A stretch of DNA of 64,000 nt, from UHGV virus genome UHGV-0203537. One strand, 5' to 3'. The DNA is from a virus. This document shows, one piece after another, positions 1 to 42,243 of this stretch; positions within the stretch are counted from its first letter, which is position 1, and each line of letters begins with the position of its first letter. The notes beneath the pieces are model-generated. The model worked only from the letters and a program-made list of their open reading frames with translations, searched no databases and was not told where the DNA came from. Position numbers and translations under genes: made by a program.

Positions 1-53
1 ATTTGGGGATGTGCCCGTCTTTCCGGGCTGTCCGCAGCCACCTACTCTGAGAT

Positions 54-637
54 TATTATAGAGAGATCAATGGTACTTGGCTCTCTCGGTATTTCACCAA
101 TTAGAACATATCCTACCATCTGCGCATTATTCAGATTATGCTCTGCCCAAGCGGCTTGGGCTGCCACGATGTCCAGCTTCGACATCTGCCGATTCGGGTC
201 TTACGGCGTGACAACATTTCTTATGTTGCGCAACGAGCTGGATCCTTGCTCATCACACCCTCTATACAGCGGTATTAAGGAACCCCTGCAAAACCTGCTT
301 TTCACATTTCTGTTTTAACGTTATCTTGTGAGTTCTGGCTTCTGCACCCGTAGGCGTCTCCAATAAGCCGAGGCTGTATTTAAACTTGCCCGATCTACCC
401 CTCGTCAGGGTCTTGATACAATCAGGAGACTTTACGTCCGCATTATAATTGTAACGGGCAGCGGATCTCCCGTGCGGTCTTATTAACAACACCTATTCGC
501 ACAACCAAAAGGATAGGATTTGAACCTATGACACCACCGGTTAACAGCCGGGTGCTCTACCAACTGAGCTACCTCTGCACGAATACCACAGTCAGACCTA
601 TGCGTACACTCAATACGCTTATCTCCCAACCGTATAA
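54..637 (-). ncRNA. ROOL-like large structured RNA (GOLLD not excluded)
   Basis: No credible ORF. Terminal pairing GGGAGAT/ATCTCTC plus TTATA/TATAA. Segments GGTGCAGAAGCC, GTGATGAGCAAG, GCAGATGTCGAAG and CTGAATAA..GATGGTAG resemble ROOL as recalled. Size ~580 nt, among phage tRNAs. Confidence 0.6.
505..578 (-). tRNA. tRNA-Asn(GTT)-like domain, degenerate acceptor, no CCA, embedded in the large RNA
   Basis: D arm GCTC-AGTTGGTA-GAGC, anticodon loop CT-GTT-AA, T arm ATAGG-TTCAAAT-CCTAT. Confidence 0.75.
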
Positions 638-689
638 CGCTGAGTACGTTTACTGTACCGTCCATACATTGTTTTGTTTGGTTGTGCTA

Positions 690-901
690 CGGTCTTATTG
701 TTGATACAAGTTAATGTGTATCTCAACCACTCAGACAGCTATATCGCCATACCGCAAGCTGATGTGGATTTTACAATTACAAGGGTGACACTAAGATAGT
801 CTCCGCCACGTTTTATCCCTTGTTATCATCTGTTATGCAGCACAGATGACCTTGGCCACTGAGTTTTCACCTATAAGCTTTGTCTGCATCTGATTATAGG
901 T
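690..901 (-). ncRNA. unnamed multi-helix structured RNA
   Basis: Hairpin ACCTATAA/TTATAGGT; ACTCAG/CTGAGT enclosing CATCTGT/ACAGATG, ACAAGGG/CCCTTGT and CAGCT/AGCTG; then GATACA/TGTATC. Confidence 0.5.
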
Positions 902-906
902 ATCAT

Positions 907-944
907 TGGTGAGCCGCTCGGGTACTTACCCCAAGCAACGGCTC
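907..944 (-). ncRNA. tRNA minihelix-like RNA ending ACCA
   Basis: GAGCCGT-TGC-TTGGG-GTAAGTA-CCCGA-GCGGCTC-A-CCA. Confidence 0.55.
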
Positions 945-1067
945 ATATATGCACCCTGACTGACCTTCGATTATGCGTACTGCTCCGAGATTATGTTAAG
1001 GTGTAGGGTGCTTATACTTGGTTTCAGGAATTAGCCATTAGCCATCTCTCTTTAACGACGCTCACCC

Positions 1068-1276
1068 GCATGATTATTGTGCAGTTACTTCACCAAAAAG
1101 CAAATCCGCACTCAACGTTTTGATGATTTCTTCAAGCCCCATCCTCCCAAGGCATCAGAATTAAGTCTGCAAACGTTCTTCTGGCTTAATTCCTATCACA
1201 CTTATCTTAGACGCAGAGTTGATGTCTCCTATTGTCTGTTCTCCCATTTAGAAAGGTTGGTAGTGTTCACCATGCA
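1068..1276 (-). ncRNA. unnamed structured RNA with possible pseudoknot
   Basis: Closing GCATGGT/ATCATGC; GAATTAAG/CTTAATTC whose loop AACGTTT complements downstream AAACGTT; TGATG/CATCA. Confidence 0.45.
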
Positions 1277-1293
1277 ATTTGTAAATAATTTTA

Positions 1294-1368
1294 TGGTTTC
1301 AGGTAACGGGATCGAACCGTTATTCTTAGAGCCAAAATCTAATGTTCTACCACTTAAACTAACCTGAA
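1294..1368 (-). tRNA. tRNA-Gln(TTG)
   Basis: Full cloverleaf, acceptor TTCAGGT/ACCTGAA, loop TT-TTG-GC, T loop TTCGATC, encoded CCA. Confidence 0.93.
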
Positions 1369-1448
1369 ATATTTGTGCGGCTTAACGTACCGCACTTGAG
1401 ATCTTCATCGCTAAGAGGAGCTTGCCATAGTAGGGGGTATATAAATGT

Positions 1449-1842
1449 TTATCCACCATCAACCAGCCCCGAGGATCACACACAGCCGATGTGCTCGCCG
1501 CTTTAACCTATATCGGGGATTTCTGTGAATTTTATGATTTACAATTTACAATTTGAACTTTGAAGTGTAGCTAGTCTGCCATCAAGTACGCATGTCTGCT
1601 ACCATAAATTCTGAACTTTGATGTTTAAAACAACTAAGCTTTGAACTTTAAACTTTCAGCTATTATTCGGGCTAAAAACTCCGTTTTCTGTCCGAAAACT
1701 TTTACATTATAAATATTTGATATTCTTATCAAAAATCTTAGCATTTGAAAGCTTTTACAATTTCAAATTGTTTTTCATCACTTTTAAAATCTGTTGATGC
1801 TCAGATGATCACAGTTAAGTGTTTTCAGTTGATGATGAATAA
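1449..1842 (-). ncRNA. ~390-nt closed RNA with 7-nt periodic repeats, directly 3' of the coiled-coil gene
   Basis: 16-bp terminal helix (1827-1842 with 1449-1464) that is complete only on the minus strand via G-U pairs; internal hairpins; AAAGTTC-type heptamers. Confidence 0.7.
1527..1657 (-). repeat. degenerate heptamer repeat tract
   Basis: AAAGTTT AAAGTTC AAAGCTT ... AAAGTTC AGAATTT ... AAAGTTC AAATTGT AAATTGT AAATCAT AAAATTC. Confidence 0.8.
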
Positions 1843-1851
1843 TCAACTTAA

Positions 1852-2508
1852 TCAGTAGCTGATTTCGATTTCGGTGGTTGCATTTGCCACCGTAATGGCC
1901 GCATCCACCTCAGCTTCGAAAGCGTCGATCTTATTTTTCAGGTCTTCGATTGCCTTCTTTGTGTCAATGCCCTCGATAAGATCAAAAGTATTTTCATCGA
2001 TGTACTTTGCTCTCGCCGCATTTATGGTTTCCACCATTTCACTGGAAATGGTGTTATTACTGCTGTTTGTTCCATAAAGACCAATGATATATGTCTCGCA
2101 GGCTTTTGTCAGCTTCTCTCCGTTGTTATTCTGGAGCAGACTCTGCGTATTTGTATATTGAGTTGTCATGGAATTGAGCAGAGCCTTCATATAATCAATA
2201 CCCGTCTGCTTCATATAAATAGCTTCGGCGACAGTCATTTGCTCTCCACCGATAGACACGATTGTGGAAGCGTTTGCCTTATTCACTGCCTTCTTGATGG
2301 CATTATTCCTGTTGATGAGAGCGACTATTTTATCGTAGCTGCCCTGCATCTCTGCCTTTACGTCAGTGATATTTTTGCCGTTTAGCGTGCGCATAGTATG
2401 CTTACTTACGTTACAGAATGTCGCACTGCGAATCTCTGCTGTGATTCTGTTACCGAGCACCTTCAGCTCGGAAAGTGCCTTTGTGATGGTCATTTTTTCG
2501 TTAGTCAT
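1852..2508 (-). CDS. coiled-coil protein, DIP1984/DUF6847-like
   Basis: GGAGG RBS; MTITKALSELK, MTVAEAI and EVDAAITVANATTEIEI motifs; helical. Confidence 0.7.
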   Translation of the reverse strand: MTNEKMTITKALSELKVLGNRITAEIRSATFCNVSKHTMRTLNGKNITDVKAEMQGSYDKIVALINRNNAIKKAVNKANASTIVSIGGEQMTVAEAIYMKQTGIDYMKALLNSMTTQYTNTQSLLQNNNGEKLTKACETYIIGLYGTNSSNNTISSEMVETINAARAKYIDENTFDLIEGIDTKKAIEDLKNKIDAFEAEVDAAITVANATTEIEISY

Positions 2509-2586
2509 GATGACTCCTCCTTAATTTTTAAGTCTAAAATATCCAATATGTTTTCGCACCGATAAATAATAGCGAAAATATATATT

Positions 2587-2662
2587 TGGTGAGCCATTGG
2601 GGATTTGAACCCCAGACCAATGGTTTAAAAGACCACTGCTCTACCAACTGAGCTAATGACTC
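2587..2662 (-). tRNA. tRNA-Lys(TTT)
   Basis: GAGTCAT/ATGGCTC acceptor, GTGGT-CTTTTAA-ACCAT anticodon arm, encoded CCA. Confidence 0.96.
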
Positions 2663-2877: not shown

Positions 2878-2906
2878 ATTATATCAGATGAGTTTAAACT
2901 TGTCAA
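2878..2906 (-). promoter_or_regulatory. sigmaA-type promoter of the RNA island
   Basis: TTGACA-17bp-TATAAT with extended TG. Confidence 0.85.
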
Positions 2907-2962: not shown

Positions 2963-3901
2963 TCATTTATAGAAAACGTTTTTCCAATTCTGATAATCAC
3001 GATATGTGCTATAACCAATTTTTTTCTGATTTGAAATAGCAAACACTCTAAAATAATCCGATATATTGTTTGATGTGATCTCCTTTCCCTTCTGCTCGTC
3101 GAGATATGCACGATAAAAATTACCGGATCTCATTATCCAAGTGGGGACGAGGACTTTACCATAATACTTATTATCAATATCAACCTCCATTCTGTCCCAT
3201 GCTCTTCTGCGCTGAGCATGGAAATTATCGTTGATCTGACCGAGGGAATTCTTTTTATTCTTAGCTCTTATCAGATAAATAGACTGAGCAAATGGCATAA
3301 CACTATCGTTTATTACGACACTATCCATGTCCTTATACTCATTAATTATTTCAGCAAAATGATCTGATACTATAATAGTATCATCTCCAACTTTTATACG
3401 ATTGCCCTGCACATCTGATTTTTTCAGATTATAGATTTCAACATTGCATAATCCATTCCAATACAAACCATAAAAAGCCTGATACCAAATTATCATCGAG
3501 GAATCCTGTTCCATCATAACACTGCTGATACAATCCAACAAATCATTTTCGTCTGCAAACATTTCAGTCATGATTTTCCATCTTGGATTTATGTCTTCGT
3601 TTATAACTCTTTTAAGTTCATTTAAAGTATCGCTTGAACAGTATCCCATCTTGGTTGCCCATTCTATATACTTATTTATAATACTCTTACTGTTAAGCAT
3701 GGTGTTGGTGTTAATGATTTTATTTCTCTCAAACAAAAGCTTAAAATCGTTATAATTAAAATCATATAGGTCTTTTTTAAGAAGCTCTTCAGTGTCGGAA
3801 AATTTTTCAAACTTATACATATAGGTATTGCAAGACATGTCCGTATAGCTTCCTTCTTTCATGCTTGCTAAGAATTCGAGCTTTTTTTCCTCATTATACA
3901 T
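2963..3901 (-). CDS. MrpR/YopR-like integrase-fold lytic-cycle repressor
   Basis: MYNEEKKLEFL..EELLKKDLYDFN N-terminus, LYWNGL..EIYNLK, IMRSG, YQNWK end; recombinase catalytic residues absent; follows a DGQHR gene as in SPbeta. Confidence 0.7.
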   Translation of the reverse strand: MYNEEKKLEFLASMKEGSYTDMSCNTYMYKFEKFSDTEELLKKDLYDFNYNDFKLLFERNKIINTNTMLNSKSIINKYIEWATKMGYCSSDTLNELKRVINEDINPRWKIMTEMFADENDLLDCISSVMMEQDSSMIIWYQAFYGLYWNGLCNVEIYNLKKSDVQGNRIKVGDDTIIVSDHFAEIINEYKDMDSVVINDSVMPFAQSIYLIRAKNKKNSLGQINDNFHAQRRRAWDRMEVDIDNKYYGKVLVPTWIMRSGNFYRAYLDEQKGKEITSNNISDYFRVFAISNQKKIGYSTYRDYQNWKNVFYK

Positions 3902-5147
3902 TCTTCTCCCCCATTTCTTTATTGATTATTTCTATACTCTTTTTTGAATTTAAAAAATCCAATTTAGGAAAAACAGCAGCAAGTTCATCTTCCCAGCCTG
4001 AACGATTCTGAAGTTTACTACTTAAATAAACATAGATCGGAAATACAGAATTTTTGGCAGAGATACTCTTTTTATAACCTACAAACGCATCATAATTGAT
4101 ACTTGCAAGCTCATTAAAAAATTCAATAAGCCATTCTGCAACCTTAGTCTGTTCTTTAGCTGTTCTTGCAGAATAATACTTATCAATAGCAGCTGCAAAA
4201 TCCGATTTAAGAATAAAGCCCTGACCGACCTGAATTCCCTGTTGAGTATCACAGAATTTGTAAATACCATCAAGCTCACCGCTGCCAATAATCTTTTTCA
4301 TAACATTGTTTCCCATAGTATATTTGTATTGAGCCACTACACTCTTATTGATGGGGGCACGTTCTTCGTCTTGATTGATGATTCTCTGAGCAGTCGCACG
4401 AGAGCCTATTGTCAGAACAATGGGCATAGTCATTATGATATTTGGATTATTCATAAGAGCATATTCACTGCCTTTATCTCGATGTTGACCATCGATCTCG
4501 GCAATATACCCTGATTTCAATATAACTCTATCGTCTTTTACCTCATAGTCAGATTCGTCCGCCACGATATGCCAACGAAGAGAATTGGGAAAGAATGTTC
4601 CATCGCTCATAGACTTTCCGATTGCTCTGGCACGGTTGTCATCATATTTGATATGACTTATAAAGTCATTATCAGAAAGCTTGGTAATGACAGTTTCTCT
4701 TTGCATTCCTTCTTTCCATTGTATAAGGCCGGCAGATTTCAGATTCGCAATATCCTGTATAGATAACGCTGTCAGATAATTATCATTGTCTGTAAGTCTT
4801 GCCAGTATCGGAAATGCTATTGGCAATTTGGAATAGCCTCTTTTGATATAAGCAGAATTAGCCTCGGTGATTTCCGAGGCAGTAAAAAAATGTGAAACAT
4901 CAGGAATTTTCAATGCGGCGCTATGTTTCGACACAGCTTCATACAGCCAACACAGCACAATATCTGATACGTTTTCCAAGTCGGGATTAGACATAAGAGG
5001 ACCAAGTTCTCCCCATGTCATTTTGCCGGTATCCACAAGCTCAGCGGAATAAATGTCTTGGCATACGTTAAGCTTTGTCGAAAATAGTCTTTTTAATATC
5101 GCTATGGCTTCGTTTCTTTTTGACACATTCATGTTATCACACTCCAT
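3894..5147 (-). CDS. DGQHR/DndB-like (ParB/Srx fold) protein
   Basis: MQRE, FPNSL and EIDGQHR motifs. Confidence 0.75.
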   Translation of the reverse strand: MECDNMNVSKRNEAIAILKRLFSTKLNVCQDIYSAELVDTGKMTWGELGPLMSNPDLENVSDIVLCWLYEAVSKHSAALKIPDVSHFFTASEITEANSAYIKRGYSKLPIAFPILARLTDNDNYLTALSIQDIANLKSAGLIQWKEGMQRETVITKLSDNDFISHIKYDDNRARAIGKSMSDGTFFPNSLRWHIVADESDYEVKDDRVILKSGYIAEIDGQHRDKGSEYALMNNPNIIMTMPIVLTIGSRATAQRIINQDEERAPINKSVVAQYKYTMGNNVMKKIIGSGELDGIYKFCDTQQGIQVGQGFILKSDFAAAIDKYYSARTAKEQTKVAEWLIEFFNELASINYDAFVGYKKSISAKNSVFPIYVYLSSKLQNRSGWEDELAAVFPKLDFLNSKKSIEIINKEMGEKNV

Positions 5148-5184
5148 ATATTATGATAAAGTAGCATATGCTTGTATTTGCTTT

Positions 5185-5213
5185 ATTATAACACATGTTT
5201 TCAAATATGTCAA
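5185..5213 (-). promoter_or_regulatory. sigmaA-type promoter for the DGQHR and MrpR-like genes
   Basis: TTGACA-17bp-TATAAT. Confidence 0.85.
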
Positions 5214-5626
5214 GAGAAATTCAGGATTTTCTGAAAGCGCTGTGTCTTATGCACGTTGCTCTCAAAAGCTTTTAAGACAAGAGGAGTCGCCATTATCATA
5301 GCTGTCGCAATCTTTTCAAGCTGTTTATCGCTCAGATGTCCAACAACTTCAATTATCTGAAACTTGTTAATAACCCATTGACTTTCGGCTTCAAAAGTCG
5401 TATTTCTTGGTAGTCCTTGAATTTCTCCGGCTTTAAAATGGGCGTGGGTTGGGAGTGTGCTATCGTCTCTTTTTGTAGTTCCCGGAAGAACCTCTACTGT
5501 AGGAGAAACTTTATTTCCAATGTTGTTTGAGACAACGACGGCATATCTTTCTCCGCCCTGCTGATGCCCGATGGCATTTGGCAGTGTTATTCTGACTACA
5601 TCTCCTGTTTTAACGTTCATTGACAA
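5210..5626 (-). CDS. mazF: PemK/MazF family endoribonuclease, no evident antitoxin
   Basis: GDVV..GHQQGGERYAVVVSNNIGNKVSPTV..LPTH resembles Bacillus NdoA/MazF. Confidence 0.88.
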   Translation of the reverse strand: MSMNVKTGDVVRITLPNAIGHQQGGERYAVVVSNNIGNKVSPTVEVLPGTTKRDDSTLPTHAHFKAGEIQGLPRNTTFEAESQWVINKFQIIEVVGHLSDKQLEKIATAMIMATPLVLKAFESNVHKTQRFQKILNFS

Positions 5627-40385: not shown

Positions 40386-41504
40386 GGAGACGCATTGATA
40401 ACAACAGATAATAAAGTCCTTCTTGAGAACACAAGAGATTTACCTGCAATAATGTGTGCTCAAAGAAAAGCAGAAAAAAAGATCATAACCGAAGAATTAC
40501 TCGTAGAAGCTAATCAAAACAGCTTTGGCGATGAAATAGGTACGACAACTAATCACATAACAGCTATGTATGATCTCTTGCCTTTGTTTGATAAGAATAG
40601 CGAAGAGTACAAGACGCTGGAATATAGGATAATGTGTGGACAGTTATACCAGCAGAATTGTATAGATCGTACAAAAGGCATAATCTCCAAACCTATGCCT
40701 GATTATTGGTATAACATGTCCAAAAACAAAGTCAAAGATAATAGCACACCTAAAGAAACATTGAAAAAGAAATTCAACTCTTCTATCTGTGCAAATAAAA
40801 AGCCATATTTCACGAATTATATATATCCGGATCAGATGACCGAATACAATCAATATATAAAAAGCACGAATCAAAAATGCAGAATGCTTTATCAGATGGA
40901 TATTGCGGAGTTAGAAGCTCTGCCCGAGAAGACAGAAGAGCAAAACGACTTTCTTCATTGGTATTATTTGTTACTACCCGTAAGTGATAATAGTTCAACG
41001 ATGAATAAAATTTGTCATAAAATAGAACAGGAATTTGATGGATATATATCATCTGTAAAGTCATCGTCTGATTTCGATTATAGTATAATGAAAAGCGGTG
41101 TAGAATATAGCAAATACGATTATACAAAAATCAAACAACTGTATGACGAATACTTAAAAAGAACAGTCGATTTTCAAATTAGATCGAAACAGCAAAGATT
41201 AGATAAGGAAGAAACATCTATTCAATTTTTAGTGATGAGGGATGAGTTCAAGAGGGAATGTCAAGCTATTTGCCCTAATGAATGCGAATTGTGTGATATT
41301 ATCCTTGATATGTGCTACAAGTCCTCACATTCTAAGCAGTTTGCATGGGAAATATGTGTAGATACGATTATTCATAATCTTCTTGCTAAAAATAACAATG
41401 AAATTTCATATGTATATAAAGATAAAGACGGCGAGATTATTTATTGTGGAGAAAGTTTTAGCATCGGGAAGGCAAAGGTGGAGACAAAGAATGATAATAC
41501 TTAA
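40386..41504 (+). CDS. YonO-like RNA polymerase, exon 2
   Basis: Begins GDALITTDN; IG..TN, QQNCIDRTKG, KKPYF. Confidence 0.85.
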   Translation, partial: GDALITTDNKVLLENTRDLPAIMCAQRKAEKKIITEELLVEANQNSFGDEIGTTTNHITAMYDLLPLFDKNSEEYKTLEYRIMCGQLYQQNCIDRTKGIISKPMPDYWYNMSKNKVKDNSTPKETLKKKFNSSICANKKPYFTNYIYPDQMTEYNQYIKSTNQKCRMLYQMDIAELEALPEKTEEQNDFLHWYYLLLPVSDNSSTMNKICHKIEQEFDGYISSVKSSSDFDYSIMKSGVEYSKYDYTKIKQLYDEYLKRTVDFQIRSKQQRLDKEETSIQFLVMRDEFKRECQAICPNECELCDIILDMCYKSSHSKQFAWEICVDTIIHNLLAKNNNEISYVYKDKDGEIIYCGESFSIGKAKVETKNDNT

Positions 41505-42243
41505 TGAACGTGCAGAAGCTGAGAGAATTATTGAGACGGGAAATGTTGGCGAAAAACCTTCTGAAACCTTATCATTGCTTGCGAGATACTATTACAATGT
41601 TGAAAAGCTCACTGGAAAAAAATTATATAATAAGCTGAATGAGTTTATGCAAAATAATTATCCTAAGTATGATTCGAAATTATGGGAGAATACTTTACAG
41701 AACAAAGTGAAAAAGGCAGATAAATACCCTCTTACAGAGATAAACGAAGTCGTTATTACGAGGGCGGAAATGAAAACTATAAAAAATCTAAAATCTCCAC
41801 CTCTCGAAAGACTTGCGTTTACGTTGTTGTGTCTTGCGAAATTCGGAGATAAAAGAAATATAAACAACAATGGTTGGGTTTGTCGTTCTCATGATGAAAT
41901 ATTCAAAATCGCTGCTGTACCAGCTACTATCAAAAAACAAGCAGCAATGCTGAATGGTTTATATCGAGCCGGATTGATTGGGTTCAGCATGAAAGTTACT
42001 AATACAAACATTCAGGTTCTATATATTCAGGAAGAATCGTATATGGCGATAAGAGTATCTGATTTCAGGGAGCTTGGACATGAATACATGAATTACTTAG
42101 GCAAGTATAAGTATATCAGATGTGCAGAGTGTGGGCGCTTGACAAAGTGTAAAGGGAATGCCCGCACAAAATACTGTAAGAACTGTAGCGTGAAAGTAAA
42201 TATTGAACAGACAAGTATGCGCAAATTGCAAGATAAAGCTTGA
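41491..42243 (+). CDS. hypothetical protein with C-terminal Zn finger, coupled to the RNAP gene
   Basis: MIILNE start overlaps the RNAP stop; CAECG..YCKNC. Confidence 0.75.
   Translation: MIILNERAEAERIIETGNVGEKPSETLSLLARYYYNVEKLTGKKLYNKLNEFMQNNYPKYDSKLWENTLQNKVKKADKYPLTEINEVVITRAEMKTIKNLKSPPLERLAFTLLCLAKFGDKRNINNNGWVCRSHDEIFKIAAVPATIKKQAAMLNGLYRAGLIGFSMKVTNTNIQVLYIQEESYMAIRVSDFRELGHEYMNYLGKYKYIRCAECGRLTKCKGNARTKYCKNCSVKVNIEQTSMRKLQDKA

Follow-up and report, generated by a model that had tools for sequence, protein, structure and literature searches.

What is the stretch of about 390 nt that directly follows a gene for a helical protein in UHGV virus genome UHGV-0203537, and do the gene and this stretch form one functional unit? 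The DNA analysed here (hereafter the window) comprises 64,000 nt of that genome, and a preliminary description made from its letters had proposed that the gene product oligomerises on a closed RNA with heptamer repeats, as part of a protein-RNA system for which no name was known. The left end of the window resembles a large SPbeta-type prophage. A MazF-like gene and a CI-like repressor lie upstream of the gene with an MrpR domain, and MrpR-like, DGQHR/DndB-like, and MazF-like genes stand consecutively at 2963-5626 (-), as in SPbeta-type lysis-lysogeny modules. The island of interest on the minus strand has the order promoter, tRNA-Lys, 218-aa gene, RNA, tRNA-Gln, and tRNA-Asn (Table 1), where the promoter is, judging from its sequence, the likely start of a transcript spanning tRNA, gene, and RNA. 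The helical gene was confirmed at its position, and the closest virus record holds a single copy of it. Two low-share runs cover tRNA-Lys and pieces of the gene, not the RNA, and are uninformative on expression.

Table 1. Coordinates of the gene, the predicted RNA with its parts, and neighbouring features in the window
Feature	Position	Strand	Remarks
Structured non-coding RNA (predicted), 394 nt	1449..1842	-	
Closing helix P1, 5′ strand	1827..1842	-	16 pairs; covariation
Conserved junction GAAAA-YYYY-UAA..	1809..1826	-	RAGATH-27 covers this stretch in some relatives
Variable region	1657..1808	-	local hairpins in the window; tRNA-like module in 16/62 relatives
Heptamer tract, units 1-7 (one of 9 nt)	1606..1656	-	
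Hairpin separating units 7 and 8, at a conserved break	1567..1602	-	
Heptamer tract, units 8-12 (register to 3′ domain fixed)	1527..1561	-	
Conserved 3′ domain	1465..1522	-	AAAU, stem P3 (1518-1513/1472-1467), GGUU, inner hairpin, CU linker
Closing helix P1, 3′ strand	1449..1464	-	16 pairs; covariation
218-aa helical protein gene	1852..2508	-	phrog_1491 family; T5.085 homologue; SNAxT motif repeated internally
Shine-Dalgarno sequence of the 218-aa gene	2522-2516 (whole feature 2516..2536)	-	two weak heptamer-like units just upstream
tRNA-Lys(UUU)	2587..2662	-	upstream of the gene, within the same predicted transcript
Predicted sigma-70-type promoter, perfect, with TG extension	2878..2906	-	12/12 consensus match; not functional evidence
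MrpR N-terminal domain	2963-3901	-	profile match, E 6e-14
tRNA-Gln(UUG)	1294..1368	-	downstream of the RNA

Two further observations concern the DNA beyond the RNA. A small structured element at 1375-1430 (-), between the RNA and tRNA-Gln, is kept with changes in four close relatives (L001, L003, L004, and L005); we take it to resemble a self-cleaving ribozyme, and a search of Rfam gave no match for it. The region 1-1290 (-) around tRNA-Asn is an apparently non-coding, GC-richer stretch of ~1.3 kb with the tRNA as its only Rfam match, and may hold further large structured RNAs.

In the window, the closing helix P1 is exactly as first described, with 13 Watson-Crick and 3 U-G pairs on the coding strand, and it begins 9 nt past the stop codon, which places the RNA tightly 3′ of the gene. 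All inner helices named in the preliminary description are present (1768-1743, 1733-1716, 1699-1683, 1602-1567, and 1518-1513/1472-1467), but those assigned to a “5′ domain” are lineage-variable, with the GTTTTC/GAAAAC hairpin already lost in the closest relatives (L001-L005). The elements common to the family are the closing helix, the GAAAA junction, the heptamer tract, and the 3′ stem. The heptamers, first estimated at about 10, number 12 by eye in a layout of seven units, hairpin, and five units; our strict parser counted 10 because it skips degenerate units, and Tandem Repeats Finder detects only two short pieces of the tract. The 5′ junction at 1809-1826 (-) and those of relatives may hold two extra heptamer-like units in 7-nt register, which would give 7 + (5+2) = 14 sites. 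The units had also been called apparently unpaired, a property that single-sequence folding does not reproduce, since it pairs much of the tract: in the window, the two tract halves have mean probabilities of 0.32 and 0.48 of being unpaired vs 0.39 overall, and in 62 relatives the values are 0.43 vs 0.37. That the tract is single-stranded is instead suggested by the lack of any conserved pairing found for it. The 394-nt RNA has a folding energy of z = -3.89, with 0/100 shuffles as good, while the stretch 1440-1860 gives z = -3.23 and its opposite strand also z = -2.85; folding energy alone therefore cannot fix the strand.

Homologous genes might have lacked a closed helix or a repeat tract; instead, the RNA core lies downstream of the gene in 134 of 146 distinct loci, as identified with a scanning rule that was fitted to, and written after seeing, these same sequences. 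The 146 regions come from 190 sequences (189 loci plus the window), restricted to cases in which the gene was complete and no less than 450 nt followed it. The core was found in none of the 146 reverse complements, none of the 146 shuffles, and one of 140 upstream regions. By eye, nine of the 12 misses have these ends too, in bulged or shifted form; the others are L035, L073, and L094. The linkage also holds from RNA to gene: a search pattern built on the last unit plus the 3′ domain, which favours Firmicutes-type copies, located 120 loci, and among the 80 with enough flanking sequence the gene stood upstream in 78. Both exceptions are one broken locus seen twice (L222 275-1722, the same as L295). 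Here, beyond codon 10, the gene has given way to a 471-aa endonuclease-like frame, which also takes the place of the 5′ half of the RNA; four heptamer-like units remain before the old Shine-Dalgarno sequence.

Covariation supports the fold. P1 is 99.4% paired over 11 positions when each 5′ strand is matched with its own 3′ strand, vs 58.9% when strands are swapped between the 42 distinct helices, although the former value is inflated because the anchors were chosen to maximise pairing. For the variable pairs of P3, the corresponding values are 99.2% and 57.0%, and RNAalifold applied to an independent MAFFT alignment recovers this stem with double-sided changes in 31/50 and 30/50 sequences at two variable pairs. 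The 3′ stem motif AAAUCC...GGCUG covaries, eight columns of the 3′ domain are invariant in 50 diverse copies, and the junction bases on both sides of P1 are invariant or nearly so. A further long-range helix, P2, in which the 5′ junction would pair with the bases preceding AAAUCC, is plausible in single copies and was dropped, as an anchored scan gave no clear covariation. The RNAs range from 230 to 465 nt in length and start within 40 nt of the gene stop in 50/63 loci; in L118 and L028 the spacing reaches 400-470 nt and the RNA keeps its own closing helix. The copy in phage T5 has a closing helix of 20 pairs, ~12 units by eye, and the 3′ domain. Gene and RNA are thus a real, widespread, and conserved module, and with two-way genomic linkage and covariation across phyla the proposal of a dedicated protein-RNA module is strongly supported.

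The periodicity of the tract is evident in 66 representatives, where the autocorrelation of YAA is 411 at a lag of 7 vs 48 and 49 at lags of 6 and 8, and 5 in coding controls. Their unit consensus is A98 A96 A77 G66 (C/U) U88 (U/C), i.e., AAAGYUY, and the strict parser finds 10-12 units in 50/66 of them. Most Firmicutes copies are built as seven units, a spacer, and five units, and cyanobacterial copies as seven units, one unit of 8 nt, and four more; insertions tend to fall at the break after unit 7. The spacing between the last units and AAAUCC is constant, at 11, 18, 25, and 32 nt in 42-49 of 63 copies. Some copies from Vibrio, Aeromonas, Bacillus, Salmonella SE131, and Lactococcus phages agree poorly with the consensus and the count, and L022, L028, L023, and L123 have only 1-5 strict units. 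A tmRNA-like reading of the tract is not claimed: stop codons occur in all three frames of 52/63 tracts, a pattern that comes easily in AT-rich sequence.

The same motif also recurs in front of the gene. Tandem heptamers directly precede the gene's own Shine-Dalgarno sequence in 22/64 distinct leaders (score of at least 7), a count inflated because the loci are related, vs 7/283 other starts in these loci and the window. The leader copy of the window is weak (score 0.9), and cyanobacteria mostly have none. Nevertheless, a motif shared by partner RNA and leader is what one would expect if an RNA-binding protein held back its own production, a mode of control that is established for ribosomal proteins.

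The protein belongs to the phrog_1491 family by a full-length profile match (E 5e-44, residues 3-216). A profile search collected 3,506 clusters at 50% identity, T5.085 included, and T5.085 is nearly identical to the match in SPC35. Searches with tblastn found 174 phage records for the window protein and 747, many of them T5-like, for the homologue of Vibrio phage Ceto; a genome scan returned 80 loci, 59 of which fall within L127-L189, a mostly cyanobacterial range. The pair of gene and RNA spans phages of Proteobacteria and Firmicutes as well as cyanobacterial chromosomes. No match above cut-off was obtained in Pfam, NCBIfam, or PADLOC (the last for four proteins), and a sequence search of solved structures returned nothing at E < 0.1. 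Two labels found in the sources were rejected: “tail fiber” (phrog_1491 and T5.085), which has no supporting domain or fold and whose bearers sit among non-structural neighbours and tRNA clusters, and “septicolysin”, for which domain, fold, and context give no support.

The structure model consists of four long helices and a small beta head (pLDDT 91.6). The SNAxT motif is present twice, and across 68 diverse proteins N79 and N209 are invariant and K16, R21, R67, K72, and K100 are kept at 85-92%, in a protein that is acidic overall (pI 5.6). Eight viral proteins match the fold at E <= 0.001, six of them uncharacterised phage proteins and two unnamed; in addition, two giant-virus proteins of ~560 aa weakly match the whole fold (TM 0.58-0.67, E 0.002-0.006). 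Oligomerisation, as put forward in the preliminary description, is backed by one four-copy model only, which predicts that the protein self-associates: the score of 0.44 (best control 0.00) narrowly passed a mark that was reached by 20/30 proteins solved as pairs and 1/23 solved as single chains, a calibration that is only rough for a four-copy job on a custom alignment. The four-copy runs share at least 71% of contacts at a pLDDT of at least 79, and the 25 best contacts all pair residues 26-62 of one copy with 109-183 of the next. Such predicted contacts are those that a head-to-tail interface would give and fit either a ring or a filament without showing one.

Most of these modules sit among tRNA genes, which occur within 2.5-3 kb in 165/189 loci (redundant ones included), the other 24/189 having no tRNA nearby. 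Many cyanobacterial copies lie inside long tRNA arrays, after tRNA-Thr. According to two studies, the trn operon of Anabaena is silent in normal growth and induced by translational stress, and such arrays adjoin genes for RNA processing and translation (PMC8421152, PMC10272220). We infer that these stress-induced arrays are the same as the arrays that bear the module. With a relaxed ARAGORN threshold, a tRNA-like module is found inside the variable region itself in some of the relatives (Table 1), with anticodons that differ between close relatives and therefore suit a mimic better than a working tRNA. The window RNA has no credible insert of this kind; the relaxed match inside it disappears at default settings and is taken for noise. 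Phage tRNA clusters of L049-L103, L018-L020, and L088-L091 contain amber-reading (“Pyl”) and “Stop” tRNAs according to ARAGORN, hinting at stop-codon recoding. In T5, the annotated “RNAX”, a 719-nt stable RNA of unknown function without an Rfam match, lies 1.6 kb downstream of the module (L190 849-1567 = T5 40848-41566).

The preliminary description knew no name for this arrangement, and as a module it is indeed undescribed as far as literature searches show, with most subscription papers outside the literature searched. One part of the RNA does have a name: the first ~86 nt of some Firmicutes-phage copies correspond to Rfam family RAGATH-27 (RF03100). It matches the first ~85 nt in 5/40 loci scanned (L101, L081, L113, L116, and L197; 11 of the 40 were DUF6847 loci, discussed below) with 77-95 bits at a gathering threshold of 76.1. 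The RAGATH-27 model has 86 positions and a single hairpin, without closing helix, tract, or 3′ domain, and it misses the window, T5, and cyanobacterial copies; for the window RNA there was no match at gathering or at E up to 10. Since five relatives reach its threshold, RAGATH-27 is a fragment of a larger RNA class. No function or protein partner for it was found in the sources consulted, and it is absent from the literature searched and from the main text of PMC5737381, the supplement of which may mention the upstream gene. A precedent is RAGATH-18, an orphan RNA that proved to be the partner of its upstream protein (PMC11061315). Other, shorter phage RNAs are the subject of PMC4933390. Large non-coding RNAs near tRNAs in prophages, GOLLD and ROOL, are covered by the main text of PMC5737381; compared with these, the RNA described here is much shorter, has no Rfam match to either, and is bound to one protein gene.

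Among characterised systems, two offer partial likeness. Ro60 is a TROVE/vWA protein of ~540 aa that forms an RNA-binding ring and acts in RNA-stress settings. As in the module, where the RNA ends pair in all copies compared, the gene for Ro60 (Rsr) adjoins an RNA with paired ends (Y RNA or YrlA). That RNA also bears a tRNA-mimic module, to which the relaxed-threshold inserts of 16/62 relatives may correspond, but Y RNAs have no heptamer array, and the protein studied here has 218 aa, a helical-hairpin model, and no match to TROVE/vWA by sequence or fold. Phages may also carry Ro60 (PMC12135203). The other likeness is to TRAP with the trp leader and to CsrA with CsrB. Both bind evenly spaced short repeats, one per subunit or dimer, and both are self-regulated through leader sites. 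The module shares the evenly spaced repeats and the leader sites and differs in its unrelated protein fold and in having the repeats in a dedicated closed RNA with an invariant core. CsrB carries GGA motifs in hairpin loops, in contrast to AAAGYUY here, and searches for CsrA in Pfam and for CsrB in Rfam gave no match.

A wider relationship is suggested by the structure 3KDQ, an uncharacterised conserved protein of Corynebacterium diphtheriae that we take to be DIP1984 / DUF6847. Both fold searches ranked it first (VIA: Z 10.7, next match 7.3, with rmsd 8.6 and 151 aligned; Foldseek E 0.012), at a level where Z < ~13 for helical proteins can reflect a common arrangement. It is shorter (~150 aa vs 210) and 15% identical; profile-profile comparison with DUF6847 is weak (hhalign 23-47%), and PF20935 / NCBIfam DUF6847 matched neither the protein nor any of 46 alignment members, PF20935 likewise matching nothing in four genomes carrying the gene. 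The 218-aa protein is probably a distant relative of DUF6847 / DIP1984. In 12 chromosomal loci with DUF6847, eight carry the strict 3′ motif of another conserved RNA of ~200 nt and two a near-match by eye; a 7-nt YA period is weak there (21 vs a shuffle mean of 9.5 and a maximum of 20 in 2,000, for eight loci of which two are nearly identical). The RNAs just after each DUF6847 gene (L200-L210) show compensatory AGYRC/GYRCU pairing, a G-rich 3′ end, and ~eight units of 7-8 nt, and have no Rfam match. This branch is thus like the phage module in its order, gene then conserved RNA, and unlike it in its RNA motifs.

The explanation that we prefer is a ribonucleoprotein of fixed size, in which the protein would polymerise head-to-tail along twelve heptamers with one subunit per repeat. 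The conserved lysines and arginines would read the UYAA core of each unit, and protein present in excess would, through the leader heptamers, stop further production of itself, so that its amount follows that of the RNA. The closing helix and the junction would provide a constant core, from which the variable loop presents cargo, in many copies a tRNA mimic whose anticodon drifts. By analogy with Ro60 and Y RNA, the particle may serve as a decoy, or as a scaffold for quality control, when defences damage RNA or translation is under stress, and together with the neighbouring tRNAs it would protect or sustain translation under stress or host defence. That a real ribonucleoprotein binds through the heptamers is quite likely; a closed ring of ~12 subunits, by analogy, falls a little short of an even chance, and a role in protecting translation is more tentative again, ring size and translation role both resting on analogy and gene neighbourhood. 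The complete picture, a heptamer-templated particle of fixed size that serves translation, is to our judgement slightly better than an even bet.

Among the other explanations, a sponge in the manner of CsrA/CsrB, in which the protein represses many mRNAs with AAAGYUY and the RNA only titrates the protein, is unlikely. The RNA has multiple sites and a CsrB-like length and the heptamers abut the gene's own Shine-Dalgarno sequence in part of the loci, but few other starts carry heptamer pairs, and the fixed count, the fixed 3′-stem register, and the near-invariant junction exceed the needs of a sponge. That same junction could instead point to an active RNA core, a ribozyme or ligand-binding junction (GAAAA, AAAUCC, GGUU, and GGCUG) with the protein as stabilising chaperone or shell; the invariant columns of the 3′ domain and the bases flanking P1 speak for this, as does a protein without recognisable enzyme family or fold, yet the RNA matches no Rfam ribozyme or riboswitch and the DUF6847 branch has another core, which leaves it a rather slim chance.

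Still less probable is a type III-style toxin-antitoxin pair, already mentioned in the preliminary description, or a phage mimic of such an antitoxin, where the protein would be toxic unless bound to the repeats. In type III systems, the antitoxin repeats precede the toxin gene, and every repeat folds into a pseudoknot tens of bases long. Tight linkage of the gene to a repeat-bearing RNA and the A-rich repeats agree with such a pair, whereas the RNA here lies downstream and has 7-nt units, not pseudoknots, within one closed fold; Pfam, NCBIfam, and PADLOC gave no match to a toxin, the ToxN, CptN, and TenpN endoribonucleases included, the protein model is a long coiled coil, and the module is common in lytic phages. 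About equally improbable is a role in cis, in which the RNA serves the tRNA-cluster transcript as a 3′ UTR or processing signal and forms no separate particle. This would suit the short gap, the flanking tRNAs, and the absence of a predicted promoter between gene and RNA, but the RNA retains its own closing helix where it is separated from the gene, and the pattern search found no intact RNA copy without the gene. If the protein instead bound the element as DNA (iterons or a bent array of A-tracts), the short AT-rich direct repeats would be explained; this is very improbable, as repeats every 7 bp do not keep step with the turn of the DNA helix, and as one-strand G-U pairs, together with compensatory changes that link ends lying 230-465 nt from each other, are signatures of RNA.

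A broader reading, which we regard as doubtful, is that the module represents, in phages, a class of RNA-templated protein rings that is ancient and has escaped recognition; T5 and hundreds of other phages would use it for counter-defence, and cyanobacteria in stress-induced tRNA operons. The RNA would then count out its own shell at one subunit per seven bases, twelve here and ~eight in the DUF6847 branch, and the swappable loop, often a tRNA mimic, would engage ribosomes or tRNA-cutting defence enzymes together with the invariant junction.

The module has been overlooked in a classic model phage: in T5, the gene T5.085 bears a tail-fiber label, and nothing is annotated in the ~360 nt that follow. 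With its recognition, the orphan Rfam fragment RAGATH-27 acquires a partner and becomes part of a complete structure, and a possible function emerges for a large family of uncharacterised proteins. If the preferred explanation is true, the RNA would determine how large a protein assembly becomes, a principle of use in design. The module also bears on what the large tRNA arrays of phages and bacteria do beyond supplying tRNAs.
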